IMG/VR virus record: IMGVR_UViG_3300010352_001405 | Location: 64,001-128,000 of that record | Length of the DNA: 64,000 nucleotides | Source of the DNA: a virus | Lineage: Duplodnaviria; Caudoviricetes | Reading direction: 5' to 3' (one strand) | Shown here: positions 29,737 through 50,531 of the stretch, piece by piece | Layout of the letters: each line of letters starts with the position of its first letter | Numbering within the stretch: position 1 is the stretch's first letter | Made by a program: the position numbers and the translations under genes | The notes under the pieces: generated by a model | Told to the model about the DNA's origin: nothing | What the model saw: the letters and a program-made list of their open reading frames with translations, nothing else | The model's database searches: none

Positions 29737-30750
29737 TTATTTATCATCATCAAAATCGAAAAAATCATCGATTGATTCGTCTTCGATGACATCGTTTGAT
29801 GGAAGTTTAGTACTAGCCTTTTTAATTGAATCTTCAGCGTAATTAAATGGTTTGTTACCATTAAGTAACTGGATGATTTTATCAACATTACTTCTTTTTT
29901 CATCAGACCATCCTTCCATAGATGGAGCGTGATCTTCCAAATTAACATTAGCTGGTCGAGATGTAACAACTTCTTTAATTTTATTTTGCCATTTTTTATC
30001 TACAATAGAAAATTTACCGTTTTCTTCAACAACAGGAGGTGTAATAAATTTATTAGTTTTATCATTCCAAATTTTAATTGGAGAATTTGTTAAGAATTGA
30101 CTGGTATCATAATTTGGCATTTCAACTGTTCCTCTACCGTCGGGTGATGGAGTTTTTACCAATTTTATAATCAATCTAAAATCTTTTCCATTCACGAAAT
30201 CGAAAATGTTACATTTTTCTCCAACATCTCCATTAATCTCAGCATTAATTTTCTGTTTAATCTTTGGACCATAAGGATAAACTAAAATTTTACCGACCAA
30301 TTCAGGATGTTGTTCATCTTCAATAATCATCACATAAGAATAAAATTTAGTACTTCTTTTTATTCTCTTTGAATTTTCAACATCTGCTTGATTATTAGAT
30401 TTGTAAAGTTTCCAAAAAGTTGCACATAAAGGACATGGTGTTTGTTGTGAAATATTCTTTTCACAATCATAATATCCAGCTAATTCAGGATAATCTTTAA
30501 AATCTGCATAATGTACATGTTTTTGAATAGCTGCTGGGCCTGTTCCCGAACCATCACGGTTAACATTTCTAATAAATCTAATAGTTGATCTGTAACCAAC
30601 GCCCTTTGGATCTGCTGCGTCTTCTAATTTTGGACGATATATACCGTCTTGGTTTTTGCTTTCTTTATTTAAAAAAGCCAATTCTTCATTTTGAACTTCA
30701 TCATTCGATTCAAATAAGAAATTTTCATCTTTGTCTTTGTATTCTGCCAT
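29737..30750 (-). CDS. Single-stranded DNA-binding protein (T4 gp32-like)
   Basis: IRFI, H..C..CPLC zinc site, YSYVMIIED..PELVGKILVY, GKDFRL, NYDTS.F, acidic C-tail. Confidence 0.8.
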   Translation of the reverse strand: MAEYKDKDENFLFESNDEVQNEELAFLNKESKNQDGIYRPKLEDAADPKGVGYRSTIRFIRNVNRDGSGTGPAAIQKHVHYADFKDYPELAGYYDCEKNISQQTPCPLCATFWKLYKSNNQADVENSKRIKRSTKFYSYVMIIEDEQHPELVGKILVYPYGPKIKQKINAEINGDVGEKCNIFDFVNGKDFRLIIKLVKTPSPDGRGTVEMPNYDTSQFLTNSPIKIWNDKTNKFITPPVVEENGKFSIVDKKWQNKIKEVVTSRPANVNLEDHAPSMEGWSDEKRSNVDKIIQLLNGNKPFNYAEDSIKKASTKLPSNDVIEDESIDDFFDFDDDK

Positions 30751-44697: not shown

Positions 44698-45366
44698 TTA
44701 CCAATTTATTTCATCAATGTTATTATCTCTTAAATATATGTTCGTTTTACTAAAATGTTTGCAACCCGAAAATGGTTTATATGTATTTAATGGAGATGGA
44801 TGACCAGCAAACAATATTAAATTATTTTCAGCATCCATATATTGAGCAAAATTCTGAGCAAAATTTCCCCACAACAAATAAACTAATTTATTCCTTTTTT
44901 TCAAAATTTCAATAACATTATACATAAAGGGTTTCCATCTATCTGTATGACTTCCTGGTTTACCTTTTACAACACTTAGTCCTGTATTAATTAAAAAAAC
45001 TCCTTGTTTGGCCCAATCTATTAAATCATATTTTATTTCTCCATTAACGTCCGATTTTACTTCTTTCATTATATTTATAAGAGAAGGACTAAATTTATTA
45101 GTTTTATTACCATTACTAAAAGCCAAACCGTCGAAACTTCCATCGTGATATAAATCTTGGCCAATAATAACCACTTTAATTTTATCCAACGGTGTTTCTC
45201 TAAACGCACGAAAAGCTAAACTCATTTTATCCGGATAAATGAGTTTAGTTTTTCGTTCCTCGTTTAAAAATTTTCTTAAATCGATGAAGTACTTCGAATT
45301 AAAGAAATCCTTTAATTCGAAATACCACTTTTCGCCGAAAGATTCTATTAAATATTTTTCTGTCAT
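44698..45366 (-). CDS. ung: Uracil-DNA glycosylase family 1
   Basis: GQDLYH, GLAFS, SPSL.NI, WAKQGV, HPSPL. Confidence 0.95.
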   Translation of the reverse strand: MTEKYLIESFGEKWYFELKDFFNSKYFIDLRKFLNEERKTKLIYPDKMSLAFRAFRETPLDKIKVVIIGQDLYHDGSFDGLAFSNGNKTNKFSPSLINIMKEVKSDVNGEIKYDLIDWAKQGVFLINTGLSVVKGKPGSHTDRWKPFMYNVIEILKKRNKLVYLLWGNFAQNFAQYMDAENNLILFAGHPSPLNTYKPFSGCKHFSKTNIYLRDNNIDEINW

Positions 45367-46517: not shown

Positions 46518-47165
46518 ATGATATTAGAATATAATAGTTTCTCTCAGCAATTAAGGAATAATATAATTATAGAGGTTATAAACGATGGTCGTTATTTAGA
46601 TTTTATTTTAAATGAGGAATTCCATTATAATTATTATGATTTTTATCACAGATTAAAAATAAATAAAGAACATAAATCTAAATTAAAAGAAATAGAAAAA
46701 GAAGTAGAATCTTATTTAAAAACAAATATAAATCCATTTAAAGGCAAATTTGTTAGTAAAGTAAACGGACAATCCAGTGAAATAACTTACAATATTGTAA
46801 CTACTGAACATTTTTATTTGAAATTTTTTAGACAAGATTTTGAAGATCGTAAAAAAACAATTGGATTCGTTAAACCTAATCTACATGAAGGAATAGATTT
46901 AATATACAATAACGCGGATGAAATAACTAGATTAATATGTCTACAATCTATATCAGATGGAAATCATGTTTTAATAAGAACAAAAGATAGATCCATTTAT
47001 AGTATAATAATCATTTTTGAAAAAATAAATCCAAAAGAATGGAGATTGAAATTAAAAACCCAAATGAAGGGAGTTGAATATAAAGATGATAGACAATATG
47101 ATGTTGTTAGAAAACTCCACCCTAATGGGCCTTTAATAAAAAAACCCCCAATAATGGGGGTTTAA
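46518..47165 (+). CDS. Hypothetical protein
   Basis: MILEYNSF; TAATATATA 5 nt upstream of the ATG. Confidence 0.55.
   Translation: MILEYNSFSQQLRNNIIIEVINDGRYLDFILNEEFHYNYYDFYHRLKINKEHKSKLKEIEKEVESYLKTNINPFKGKFVSKVNGQSSEITYNIVTTEHFYLKFFRQDFEDRKKTIGFVKPNLHEGIDLIYNNADEITRLICLQSISDGNHVLIRTKDRSIYSIIIIFEKINPKEWRLKLKTQMKGVEYKDDRQYDVVRKLHPNGPLIKKPPIMGV
47141..47163. terminator. Bidirectional terminator
   Basis: aaaaccccca-ataa-tgggggttt. Confidence 0.7.
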
Positions 47166-47430
47166 TGCTTTTCGTTCATCACACGCCGGCTAAAAGGCAT
47201 TTCCGGAAACCTCTCAACCACCAGTTTTCACCGTAATCCTTCCCAATAATCATATAGCTATTGGTCTATCATTTTCGGTTGATTTCAATTTTCAATATTT
47301 TTATGAACTAATTTGATAAGACAAAGATACAAAAAGTTTTTGAATCTGCAAAATTATATATTAATTTTTTTTAAAGATTTTTAATTAATTAACGATTGTC
47401 CATAGAATTGTAATACAAAAATTATCACCC

Positions 47431-47928
47431 CTAAAAATCCCATCTTTGAGCAGAAACAAGTTCAGAGTTTATCAAAATAGGTTTTACACCCAATATTTCA
47501 GAAATAATATTTTGATGTTCTGCTTTCATTTTTACATTTTCAAGCATCCAGTATTTAGGTTGTGTTTCGTTTTTTAGCCTCACAAATTCAAAAAACAGTT
47601 TGCTTCGTGGGTCTTCAAAATTCAATCCTTTGCCAGCAAAACTAAAACCTTGGCAAGGGCTTCCGCCTATAAGTAAGTCAATTTTAGGCAAATCACTACC
47701 TTTTACTTTCGTTACATCACCCAATTGTATTGTGTTCGGATAGTTTGTTTGCGTTACTTTAATTGCGTGTTTGTCAATTTCCGAAGCAAAGTAGTTATCA
47801 TACTTAATACCCACTCTATTAAGTGCTATCTGTCCGCAACTCATACCGTCAAAAAGAGATAAGACGGAAGAAAAACGGGGCATAACACCGTGTATAGGTA
47901 ATGTGGGGTTTTGTGGTTGTTCAATCAT
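47431..47928 (-). pseudogene. 3'-truncated C5 cytosine DNA methyltransferase (cassette cargo)
   Basis: VLSLFDGMSCG, GGSPCQGFS, LENV; stops at SAQR before the target-recognition region. Confidence 0.8.
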
Positions 47929-48082
47929 TTGTTCTCGTATTTAAGTTTTTAGTAATTTGACAGGGTAGTGCTTCGTAATCCCACACTGCCCATACATTTG
48001 TTCGTTATAGCCAATCAAGGTCTGTGGTTTATATCAAGCGTTGTGCGTGGCTACGTTTCATACACGCAACCGTTATGTGCCA

Positions 48083-48337
48083 TTAACCGATAACATCGTG
48101 AATTGACGTCACTCTTGGCAACAGCTTCCGCATCAATGAGAAAAAACTTTGGTATTCCTCAATCTGCTTTTTCTGTTGTTCAAGTGTGTTTTCCAAATCA
48201 ACTATGTGTTCGTGTGCCAAAAACCACTCATTCAATTTTCCACTTTCGTCTTTTGATGTAATGTGTTTTTTCAATTCATCATACTTGTCGGCACACTCTT
48301 TTTTTCTCATTGCTGCTCCGTGGTCGTAATAAGCCAT
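48083..48337 (-). CDS. Cassette-borne hypothetical protein
   Basis: Stop codon immediately before TGGCACATAAC. Confidence 0.6.
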   Translation of the reverse strand: MAYYDHGAAMRKKECADKYDELKKHITSKDESGKLNEWFLAHEHIVDLENTLEQQKKQIEEYQSFFSLMRKLLPRVTSIHDVIG

Positions 48338-48446
48338 ATCGTTTTAAATTTAACGGCACATAACACGGTATATATGTTATACGCCAAATTAGCGTTGTAC
48401 TATTATTTAAGTTTGTGGTCAGGCGTACAACACATATACCCAACCG

Positions 48447-48665
48447 TTATGCCTCATTTAGAGAAGCGACAATAAAAGCGTTTGGATGCTTACCATCCCA
48501 TCTGTTTTTATATGCTTTTGCTTCTTCGTATGTGCATAATCCTATTGTAATTTGTTCCCAAACACCTTCTTCTACTTCTTCAACAACAAAGAATAAACGA
48601 GGCATAACAGCACCCTTATTCAATGCGGGAGTTTCATCTTCGTTGGATAATTTTTCATTACACAT
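48447..48665 (-). CDS. Cassette-borne hypothetical protein
   Basis: Stop TAA lies within GGCATAAC; alternative start at GTT-ATG near 48605. Confidence 0.55.
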   Translation of the reverse strand: MCNEKLSNEDETPALNKGAVMPRLFFVVEEVEEGVWEQITIGLCTYEEAKAYKNRWDGKHPNAFIVASLNEA

Positions 48666-48736
48666 AATTTATACTTTTAATGTGGTTCAGTGCAATTAAG
48701 CCCGCACTAAATAAGGCTGCGAAGCGTTAGTGCCAA

Positions 48737-49105
48737 TTATAAAGACAGTCCGTGCATCTTTCTACACCAATCGTTAAAAACATTGATTATGTATGGTTTA
48801 AAATCCTCATAATCGTTCTTTTCTTCAATAAATTTTCTATCATCCATTTCAGAGTTCCAAAGCATATTATCTCCAAATCCAAATATATCAACATATCCAT
48901 CAGTCGAATAATAGAATTTATTTTCAATTTCCCCGTATTTGTCATATATTTCTTGGTTTAAGTCGTTTGCCACTTCAATAAATTCTGAACCTTTGTGATA
49001 ATACCATTTTGCAGGAGTTGAATCGGATAAATAAAAATTTGAATAATCTCTATCTGAATACATTATAAAATATGGTAATATTTTATCTAATTCATCTTTT
49101 TTCAT
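48737..49105 (-). CDS. Hypothetical protein; 3' part cassette-derived
   Basis: Stop followed by TTGGCACTAAC. Confidence 0.55.
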   Translation of the reverse strand: MKKDELDKILPYFIMYSDRDYSNFYLSDSTPAKWYYHKGSEFIEVANDLNQEIYDKYGEIENKFYYSTDGYVDIFGFGDNMLWNSEMDDRKFIEEKNDYEDFKPYIINVFNDWCRKMHGLSL

Positions 49106-49127: not shown

Positions 49128-50531
49128 TTAAAAATAACTACTACCGTCCCAGCAATGTGTACACAATTGACATTTTGGAAGACCTATAGCTTCTACTAAA
49201 TCATTTAATTCTTGATATTTTAAAGTAGTACATTCCATACTTTCGCCAATTTTTTCTATCATTTTATTATATCTATCCGTTCCAGGTGTTGCATATTCAT
49301 CTAAATGTGAATCTTCTTTTCCTTCTAATTCTTTAATAACTCTTCTACCAATTAAATCCAATGAAGTTCTAGAAATAGAAAAATTTAAAAATTCACATGG
49401 ATATATCAAGGCGGGGCATGATGGTCTAATATGAACTTCCTTTGCGCCATAACTAAATAGAGATTTTGCGTTGTTTTTTAATTGCGTTCCTCTTACTATA
49501 CTATCATCACAAATTACTATTTTCTTATCTTTAATAATATCCTTGATTGGAATCAATTTCATTTTAGCCACTAATTCCCTATCCCTTTGTTTTTGTGGCA
49601 TGAAACTCCTGGGCCAAGTTGGAGTATATTTATTATGTGCTCTTTTATATGGGATCTTTCTTTCATTAGAATAACCTATCGCTGAACCGACGCCAGAATC
49701 CGGAATTCCACTAACAAAATCGACATTCACGTTATCTTTTTTAGCTATGGATCTACCTAATCTATATCGAGTTTCTTCTACATTAATTTTTTCATAATAA
49801 CTAGCTGGAAAACCATAATAAATCCAAAGAAATGAACATATTTGCATTTTATTACCAGCTCCCCTTCTTTTTTCATATCCATCGGATGTTATAAATAATA
49901 TTTCACCGGGACCAATATATTTCTCAATTTCATATCCCAAATTGACAAAAGAACTTGTTTCTGAAGCTATAGCATAAGAACCTTCTTTTTTACCTAAAAT
50001 AATTGGTGTTCTACCGAGTTTATCTCGTGCAGCTATTATTTTATTTTTAGTGAGTATAAGCATCGTGCAGGAACCTTTGATAAGATCAAATACGTTTTCT
50101 ATTCCTGATTCAAAACTGTCACATTCATTTATAAGTGTTGCGATAATTTCAGTGGGATTGATACCACTACCAGACATTTCTAGAAAATGAAGATTTTTCT
50201 TCATCGTTCTTTCGATAAGTTCGTTTATATTTGCGATTTTATTAACTGTAGTTATTGCATATTCTCCGAGATGTGATCTCACTAAGATTGGTTGAGATTC
50301 ATTATCACTAATAGCTCCAATTCCGCTATTACCTTTAAAATTTCTCAAATCATCTTCAAATTTCGTTCTGAAATAAGAATTTTCTATACTATGAATAGAT
50401 CTATCAAATTTAATGCCATCGAAAACGACCATTCCTGCTCTACTTGTACCTAAATGTGAATGATAGTCAGTACCATAGTATAAATCATTAACACAATCAT
50501 CTTTTGATATTACTCCGAATATTCCTCCCAT
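49128..50531 (-). CDS. purF: Amidophosphoribosyltransferase
   Basis: RDKLGRTP, CSFLWIYY, IPDSG, PRPP motif ICDDSIVRGT, LCTHCWDG. Confidence 0.9.
   Translation of the reverse strand: MGGIFGVISKDDCVNDLYYGTDYHSHLGTSRAGMVVFDGIKFDRSIHSIENSYFRTKFEDDLRNFKGNSGIGAISDNESQPILVRSHLGEYAITTVNKIANINELIERTMKKNLHFLEMSGSGINPTEIIATLINECDSFESGIENVFDLIKGSCTMLILTKNKIIAARDKLGRTPIILGKKEGSYAIASETSSFVNLGYEIEKYIGPGEILFITSDGYEKRRGAGNKMQICSFLWIYYGFPASYYEKINVEETRYRLGRSIAKKDNVNVDFVSGIPDSGVGSAIGYSNERKIPYKRAHNKYTPTWPRSFMPQKQRDRELVAKMKLIPIKDIIKDKKIVICDDSIVRGTQLKNNAKSLFSYGAKEVHIRPSCPALIYPCEFLNFSISRTSLDLIGRRVIKELEGKEDSHLDEYATPGTDRYNKMIEKIGESMECTTLKYQELNDLVEAIGLPKCQLCTHCWDGSSYF

Follow-up and report, generated by a model that had tools for sequence, protein, structure and literature searches.

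The DNA analyzed here, referred to as the window, is a 64-kb stretch (positions 64001 to 128000) of the 163-kb IMG/VR virus record IMGVR_UViG_3300010352_001405, for which CheckV estimates a completeness of about 23%. On its minus strand, at positions 47431 to 49105, it carries four small gene cassettes together with three complete hairpin sites and one half site. This region is very probably a decayed fragment, without a recombinase, of a type of integron-like cassette array that is common in phages of Bacteroidota. Its sites belong to a family of phage hairpins, its cassettes have definable boundaries, and in related arrays the cassettes are exchanged and permuted; in cultured phages, insertion at the attI-like site is seen, and the recombinase of the complete arrays is of the Xer type. 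A preliminary description of the window, based on the letters alone, had proposed an integron-like array. The cassette rule and the core on which this was founded hold; the array is nevertheless not a canonical integron, since it fails on the defining enzyme (Xer type, without the IntI insertion) and on cassette polarity (hairpin 5′ of the gene).

Organization of the array in the window

The features of the region are listed below in window coordinates, in the order in which they are read on the coding (minus) strand; ORF denotes an open reading frame.

48737 to 49105, minus strand: ORF122 (122 amino acids), a cassette body without its own 5′ boundary at the distal end of the array; G+C content, 0.27
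48599 to 48735, minus strand: site A, an attC-like hairpin (137-nt class; complete), flanked 5′ by GGCACTAAC and 3′ by GTTATGCCTC
48447 to 48665, minus strand: gene of cassette 2, 72 amino acids if started in the loop of site A; the 52-amino-acid body (ORF52) starts at 48605
48355 to 48455, minus strand: site B, a complete attC-like hairpin of the 100-nt class
48083 to 48337, minus strand: ORF84 (84 amino acids), gene of cassette 3, with exact inverted ends at 48355 to 48364 and 48072 to 48081
48014 to 48081, minus strand: half site, the remainder of a 100-nt-class hairpin with its left arm, its loop, and only the initial 6 nt of its right arm, joined directly to site C
47877 to 48013, minus strand: site C, a complete attC-like hairpin of the 137-nt class, the loop of which contains the ATG (47928) of the dcm leader
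47431 to 47928 (47431 to 47883 without the loop start), minus strand: dcm, a cytosine-5 DNA methyltransferase gene (PF00145) cut at its 3′ end
47166 to 47430, no strand: AT-rich stretch, the place where the remainder of dcm, further cassettes, attI, and a recombinase gene would be expected

The array thus runs from ORF122 via site A, the ORF52 body, site B, ORF84, the half site, and site C to dcm, which is cut at 47431. Along this strand, ORF122 ends with TTGGCACTAAC; site A is followed by the ORF52 body between GTTATGCCTC and GAGGCATAAC, site B by ORF84 between GTTATGTGCC and GGCACATAAC, and the half site and site C by GTTATGCCCC, which opens dcm. The exact 10-bp inverted pairs reported in the preliminary description were found again on the plus strand, both matching at 10 of 10 positions: gttatgtgcc (48072 to 48081) and ggcacataac (48355 to 48364) enclose the ORF84 cassette, and gttatgcctc (48446 to 48455) and gaggcataac (48599 to 48608) enclose the ORF52 cassette. 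Its further observations that stop codons fall in or next to the TAAC box and that the island is comparatively GC rich also proved correct. Specifically, the TAA stop lies inside GAGGCATAAC for ORF52, 1 nt ahead of GGCACATAAC for ORF84, and 2 nt ahead of GGCACTAAC for ORF122, and the G+C content of the island is 0.37 to 0.40, compared to 0.256 across the 163-kb record.

From its TAAC up to GGCTAT, the half site can be aligned with two intact sites, L131:4090 and L098:3704; beyond this point the similarity is lost, and the TAAC of site C follows (L numbers denote comparison loci or contigs, and coordinates after the colon are those within the locus). It is the scar of an aberrant deletion by which at least one cassette body was removed.

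The hairpin sites belong to one structural family

An alignment (A1) of 51 nonredundant sites of the 100-nt class was assembled from arrays in other contigs, and a covariance model (R1) was built from it without any sequence of the window. A scan of the window with R1 returned exactly three matches, all on the minus strand: site B (80 bits; E value, 2.2e-15), site C (35 bits; E value, 3.5e-5), and site A (31.8 bits; E value, 1.8e-4), with the next match at an E value of 5.8. The count of three full hairpins and one half site given in the preliminary description was thereby recovered, the half site through its two intact counterparts. All three complete sites share a G·T wobble (AGT opposite ATT). 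The minus-strand folds of sites A and B were better than those of shuffled sequences (z scores of −2.8 and −2.6, with 2 and 3 of 200 shuffles as good, respectively), and their plus-strand folds were poorer, because several stem positions are G·T paired on the minus strand only. For site A, the DNA fold reached −20.8 kcal/mol on the minus strand versus −15.8 kcal/mol on the plus strand; site B forms a 19-bp stem with two G·T pairs on the minus strand, and its own boxes pair at only 3 of 6 outer positions. Folding of both strands had been suggested as a check for extrahelical bases: a strand bias was indeed seen, but it stems from G·T pairs rather than from bulged bases, of which there are none.

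Within A1, RNAalifold yielded 24 base pairs, 18 of which are supported by compensatory changes, and the G·T pair is present in 50 of the 51 phage sites. The TAAC and GTTA motifs do not vary; the R box and the L stem are paired, and the spacer is not. Family sites span 60 to 140 nt and have a freely covarying stem of about 20 bp; they differ from attC sites in the box GTTA(T/G)nn, the absence of bulged bases, the invariant G·T wobble, and a spacer of unequal sides (4 to 5 nt against 1 to 2 nt). Applied to 36 other loci, R1 gave 133 matches, every site being read on the strand of the recombinase; the few reverse-strand matches were the same sites read backwards, scoring about 60 bits lower. A search of the hairpins against Rfam at E values up to 10 returned no relevant family. 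A scan of IMG/VR with a degenerate DNA pattern gave 62 matches, approximately the number estimated to occur by chance, and was not used, although genuine arrays were subsequently recognized in two of the matched contigs, L036 and L017 (identical with the contig of L075). As a side observation, there is a class of 60-nt mini-hairpins with the loop TCGTTTTAA (L100:1459-1518, L079:3697-3756, L103:5358-5417, and L153:30002-30062).

Complete arrays adjoin an Xer-type recombinase and an attI-like junction

In the viral contig L067, ORF84 adjoins a recombinase: a gene for a 266-residue tyrosine recombinase with the domains PF00589 and PF13495 starts 53 nt past the ORF84 cassette. Its best NCBIfam match is XerA_Arch with 171 bits, whereas the integron integrase model TIGR02249 is matched in two stretches with 153 bits, below the cutoff of 265. 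Among solved structures, the best match is the archaeal XerA (4a8e; 2e-36), which aligns continuously. The alignment with IntI4 (2a3v) is split into residues 14 to 177 and 215 to 261, between which IntI4 has 85 residues and the phage protein has 37, i.e., about 48 are missing; the I2 insertion is therefore absent from the phage enzyme. The catalytic residues R, K, HxxR, H, and Y are invariant in 32 family members.

Relatives of the L067 enzyme are encoded on 238 IMG/VR contigs, and the array context was read in 80 loci from these. Arrays of 2 to 16 hairpin sites lie directly upstream of the recombinase gene and on the same strand, with almost none downstream. An attI-like junction, TAAC|TATnATATAT, is conserved in about 50 distinct arrays, about 40 to 55 nt before the ATG of the recombinase gene; in these loci, the last cassette ends with nnnnnnTAAC and is followed directly by TAT(T/C/A)ATATAT, without a hairpin in between. 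This excludes the assignment of a hairpin to the gene that precedes it. The canonical polarity, in which each hairpin is owned by the upstream gene, was considered and ruled out by these hairpin-free junctions and by the finding that ORF84 and dcm are followed by another hairpin in each context. Apparently empty cassettes of the form GTTATAAAAT-CGTTTTAATG-TTTTATAAC also exist, some of them directly beside attI. The G+C content of the arrays is about 0.30 whatever that of the backbone (0.24 to 0.47), and the GC island in the window is thus a property of the cassette pool and no evidence for capture of the array as a block. The cassette-shuffling system in Bacteroidota phages at which the preliminary description had hinted does exist, with its own recombinase and attI-like site.

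Cassette ends covary and the cassette order is permuted

A count over 129 cassettes from other arrays showed that the six outer bases at the two ends of a cassette pair at 4.66 of 6 positions on average (58 cassettes perfectly and 34 with five pairs), compared to 2.25 within one hairpin and 2.14 in random pairs. An exact 10/10 pair, found in both complete cassettes of the window, occurs in 1% of random R-box pairs (49 of 5,000). It had been noted beforehand that the two ends of a single hairpin match less well than those of a cassette, which agrees both with the 3 of 6 positions of site B and with the family-wide values, and these features had been taken as a signature of recombination at G|TT. 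Cassette-specific inverted ends of this kind are indeed the pattern expected if the crossover lies inside the AAC/GTT core and both ends pair in the excised form. High-identity matches between arrays mostly start at the TAAC before a hairpin and stop at the next TAAC, which suggests as the mobile unit a hairpin plus a gene, cut at or beside AA|C of the coding strand, which corresponds to G|TT of its complement.

Permutation of cassettes was found between nearly identical arrays. A 960-nt block (X; 99.9% identical) is located beside attI in L102 and L103, whereas in L109 it is internal and precedes a second block (Y; 100% identical); as the position of block X differs, the cassette order is permuted. 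The preliminary description would have been contradicted by an order that is never permuted in relatives, and this comparison does not contradict it.

Cassette genes of the window recur in related arrays

Three cassettes of the window are shared with other arrays of the family: ORF84 (L067), ORF52 (L074 and L076), and dcm (L269 to L272). ORF84 has 81 metagenomic homologues with up to 92% identity, and nine viral loci carrying it were recovered, eight of which are distinct (L070 duplicates L069). In the eight distinct viral contexts, homology ends on the 3′ side immediately past GGCACATAAC, and on the 5′ side at GTTATGTGCC or at the TAAC preceding the upstream hairpin; beyond both edges lie other hairpins, genes, or backbone. 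The ORF52 homologue in L074 and L076 (66% amino acid identity) is the cassette adjoining the recombinase, and its ends read GTTACCCCTC...GAGGGGTAAC in place of GTTATGCCTC...GAGGCATAAC in the window, i.e., a compensatory change has occurred at both. In L074, the same ORF52 body carries a different leader of 55 amino acids, which is encoded in an enlarged loop. The last 81 residues of ORF122 and the box TTGGCACTAAC recur with 75% amino acid identity in L265, a 324-kb viral contig in which a different, likewise broken hairpin follows directly after the TAAC of the ORF122-like tail.

The dcm fragment matches PF00145 (9e-35) over profile positions 3 to 119 of 324. Full-length copies of this cassette found elsewhere encode 302 to 341 amino acids and have their TAA inside GGGGCATAAC, the exact complement of their GTTATGCCCC. 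Homology of the window copy to these stops at residue 161, after the SAQ of motif VIII, and AT-rich DNA follows; judged from its sequence, the encoded protein lacks the target-recognition part and is most likely inactive. The hairpin of site C and the leader MIEQPQNPTLPIHGV also precede dcm in L269, L270, and L271, where the upstream neighbors differ and a different hairpin follows each copy; the dcm copy in L272 is more distant, and its hairpin and leader have diverged. Start codons are located in hairpin loops, and from there the reading frame continues across the 3′ arm and the GTTA box into the gene of the cassette, in the window at 48599 to 48665 for the 72-residue form of the cassette 2 gene and at 47877 to 47928 for dcm. 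Searches of Pfam and PHROGs gave no match for ORF84, for the 52- or 72-residue product of cassette 2, or for ORF122, and among GenBank phages there was neither a DNA match to the hairpin region nor a homologue of ORF84.

A filled and an empty platform in cultured Polaribacter phages

The best match of the recombinase among GenBank phages is only 39% identical. Two cultured Polaribacter phages, Freya_1 (L266 and L267) and Freya_10 (L152 and L268), encode an integrase that is 34.5% identical to the L067 enzyme. Their genomes are 100% and 99.9% identical in the flanks, and Freya_10 equals Freya_1 plus a 4.9-kb block with about 12 small ORFs and hairpins, inserted exactly between ...TTGTTTACAAC and ACCCCTATAAC... 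(junction ...ACAAC|ACCCC). The insertion point lies 47 nt before the integrase ATG, and the inserted block ends with ...TTGCTAAC. From this comparison, Freya_1 looks like the empty platform and Freya_10 like the filled site. None of the Freya sites reached an E value of up to 1 with R1; they were detected by a simple stem finder. In the publication on these phages, the integrase was taken only as a sign of a temperate lifestyle (PMC8776804). A further Polaribacter phage, P12002L, has five R1 family sites, which flank its methyltransferase genes.

Related arrays of opposite polarity in Bacteroidota chromosomes

A recombinase profile was scanned against one genome per prokaryote species. The relatives found, 40 to 47% identical, are mostly from Bacteroidota, where the enzyme has 376 to 380 residues and passes NF040815. 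Examples (L199 to L263, including L221:7695-14800, L209, and L255) come from Seonamhaeicola, Arundinibacter, Maribacter, Winogradskyella, Flavobacterium psychrophilum, and others. In these chromosomes, arrays detected by R1 are located downstream of the recombinase gene, with sites antisense to the cassette ORFs, which is the polarity of canonical integrons. The G·T pair is present in 44 of 44 bacterial sites, and the covariation, calculated from an alignment fitted to the model, is 0.66, compared to 0.17 for shuffles and about 0.1 for slid partners.

The strand bearing the G·T mark is thus the coding strand in phage arrays and the antisense strand in the chromosomal ones. As it is opposite to transcription in the bacteria, the marked strand follows the geometry of site and recombinase rather than transcription. 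Such a distribution argues for folded DNA as the likely substrate and speaks against an element acting in mRNA.

State of the window copy and proposed mode of action

The array in the window is truncated at both ends, as had been recognized at the outset, and scarred inside by the half site. On one side, dcm is cut; on the other, ORF122 lacks a 5′ box, and no GTTAGTGCC that would match its 3′ box was found upstream in the window. The reported lack of an integrase in the window extends to the whole 163-kb record, in which neither PF00589 nor the family profile (A2) detected a tyrosine recombinase. No attI-like TAAC-TATnATATAT was found near the array, and matches to it across the window occurred at chance level. 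The orientation of the sites, sense to the genes, is that of phage arrays, and the homologues of the cassettes were found in viral contigs; the source to which this points is therefore a phage array and not a bacterial one. Today the array is probably inert cargo, consisting of two small intact genes and a dead methylase gene. Because its three complete sites (A, B, and C) have been preserved, it might still be mobilized if a related recombinase were provided in trans.

In the complete systems, small genes are stored as cassettes between hairpin sites with a TAAC...GTTA core. By analogy with IntI, which cuts the bottom strand of attC, the recombinase is presumed to cut a single folded strand of DNA at AA|C; the acting enzyme, the single-strand folding, and the exact cut are all inferred. 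A unit of hairpin plus gene would be excised and reinserted at attI, and the complementary ends specific to each cassette would thereby be accounted for. In phages, this strand is the coding strand, and the hairpin therefore lies 5′ of the gene, often supplying a start codon and a short leader peptide. The copy in the window has lost attI and the recombinase gene, with dcm halved and one site half deleted.

Several observations weigh against this reading. The recombinase is linked to the sites by adjacency only. The window array itself has neither a recombinase nor attI, although with a record that is about 23% complete the enzyme could lie elsewhere in the genome. Six distinct contigs with ORF84 (all except L071 and L072) were checked for a family recombinase; five of them, like P12002L, have site clusters but no such enzyme, although these contigs are incomplete. 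Finally, a minority of exchanges break at GTTA, as ORF84 occurs with three types of upstream hairpin and the ORF52 body with two; a strict model with one strand and one cut does not predict such breaks.

Beyond the fragment itself, a wider proposal may be put forward tentatively, to which we assign somewhat less than even chances. It would see in these arrays a second, undescribed kind of integron, in which an Xer-type enzyme without the IntI insertion acts on one folded strand marked by a G·T wobble. This kind would be common to Bacteroidota chromosomes and phages, with opposite gene polarity; the phage site would serve in addition as translation start and leader, with the rarer GTTA-side exchanges building new N termini, and clusters without a recombinase would be stores that can be moved in trans during coinfection.

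Alternative explanations

Clusters of attC sites lacking integron integrases (CALINs) offer the nearest alternative, according to which the region would be a true attC cluster derived from a bacterial chromosomal integron and served by the IntI of the host. The geometry is attC-like, with the AAC/GTT core, cassette-specific inverted ends, and stop codons in the box, and Qi et al. in 2023 described CALINs with methyltransferase cargo in 17 phages, among them P12002L (PMC9892861), whose P12002L_attC1 is one of the five R1 sites (30002 to 30062). We regard this explanation as unlikely. The recombinase linked to such arrays in about 60 contigs lacks the IntI insertion and stays with 153 bits below the 265 required for TIGR02249, and only one complete integron was reported for Bacteroidetes with IntegronFinder 2.0 (PMC9024848). 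Six sites were assayed by Qi et al., and P12002L_attC1, the sole family-type site among them, was the only one without a verified IntI1 junction (PMC9892861); their attC2, which was active, is not matched by R1. Moreover, sites and genes of the window share one orientation, as in phages and unlike in bacterial arrays, and it is in viral contigs that homologues of its cassettes are found.

It is very unlikely that the hairpins act at the RNA level, as terminators, processing sites, or translation signals, and that the modules are shuffled by ordinary homologous recombination, as proposed for PeSL elements. Such a role would fit the more stable fold on the coding strand in phages, the intergenic position of the sites, and the many loops with a start codon and a leader read through the 3′ arm; yet the invariant G·T pair is antisense in bacterial arrays, no T-run follows the stems, and the arrays are tied to one recombinase family. 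In addition, hairpins beside the same cassette can be wholly different in sequence, and the breaks still fall within 1 to 4 nt of TAAC. Even less can be said for miniature transposons, in which each gene would be bounded by 10-nt terminal inverted repeats and the hairpins would be incidental: the exact inverted 10-mers around ORF52 and ORF84 are what such elements would have, but the 10-mers vary by cassette with GTTA/TAAC alone in common, there are neither a linked transposase nor target site duplications, and insertion always occurs at one fixed junction beside the recombinase gene. We consider this origin most improbable.

Features adjoining the array

A GC-rich stem, CCCCCAnnnnnnGGGGG, occupies positions 47139 to 47169 in the space that separates the convergent ORF215 from the island. 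Flanked on either side by T/A runs, it looks like a two-way terminator, which accounts for weak Rfam matches to leaders and small RNAs. Farther away, at 45202 to 45265, a 22-bp near-perfect hairpin bounded by AAAC...GTTT lies at the 5′ end of an ORF resembling uracil-DNA glycosylase (44698 to 45366) and is not matched by R1. On the other side, the array is adjoined by a purF-like gene (glutamine amidotransferase and phosphoribosyltransferase; 49128 to 50531) with 31 metagenomic relatives of 53 to 89% identity. Synteny is seen only in L154, which is cut before the island, and a relative of the giant phage with an empty site, sought via this neighboring gene, was found neither in IMG/VR nor among the 31 metagenome loci.

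Significance and comparison with known systems

Integrons are the textbook case of bacteria capturing genes one at a time, and an insertion specific to IntI is generally considered essential to their chemistry. Here, the integron architecture is accompanied by an ordinary Xer-type enzyme. The combination is seen in hundreds of contigs from uncultured phages, in flavobacterial phages available in culture, and in mirror image on Bacteroidota chromosomes. If the enzyme acts on the sites, recombination of folded sites would not require the I2 insertion, a cassette economy for accessory genes (methyltransferase genes and many genes without known function) would exist in the phages themselves, and a large class of cassette systems would be missed in surveys based on IntI. 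Direct tests of the system are possible with the Freya phages and their Polaribacter host, and the window represents an end state that illustrates the decay of arrays after loss of the enzyme. Searches of open-access papers and bioRxiv retrieved no account of cassette arrays with an attI-like site and a phage-encoded recombinase of the Xer type.

An Xer-type enzyme without the IntI insertion that uses a folded single-stranded hairpin is known from CTXphi, whose attP is recombined by XerCD at dif. CTXphi differs from the phage arrays in that its whole genome is integrated at the chromosomal dif; there are no cassettes or arrays and no phage-encoded enzyme. PeSL elements of T4-type phages are promoter and stem-loop repeats that flank small accessory genes in plastic regions and are shuffled as modules, a process thought to be driven by homology; to our knowledge, neither a dedicated recombinase nor a fixed insertion site or cassette-specific inverted ends have been described for them.

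With the CALINs, the window shares the character of a recombinase-free site cluster in a phage with methyltransferase cargo: by the R1 family model, it has three sites within 860 nt and no recombinase in 163 kb. In contrast, the phage CALINs were read as parts of integrons usable by bacterial IntI, and no phage recombinase, attI-like site, or site family was reported for them (PMC9892861).

The likeness to integrons themselves comprises single-gene cassettes between imperfect hairpins, the AAC/GTT core, complementary ends specific to each cassette, one insertion site next to a tyrosine recombinase gene, reordering, strand-specific structural marks, and a base composition independent of the backbone. 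The differences are that the family enzyme is Xer-like, with 266 residues and without the I2 insertion, that a G·T wobble and an unequal spacer replace the extrahelical bases, and that the box reads GTTAnnn instead of GTTRRRY. In the phage family, furthermore, the genes lie on the folding strand and point toward the recombinase gene, and the hairpin precedes the gene.

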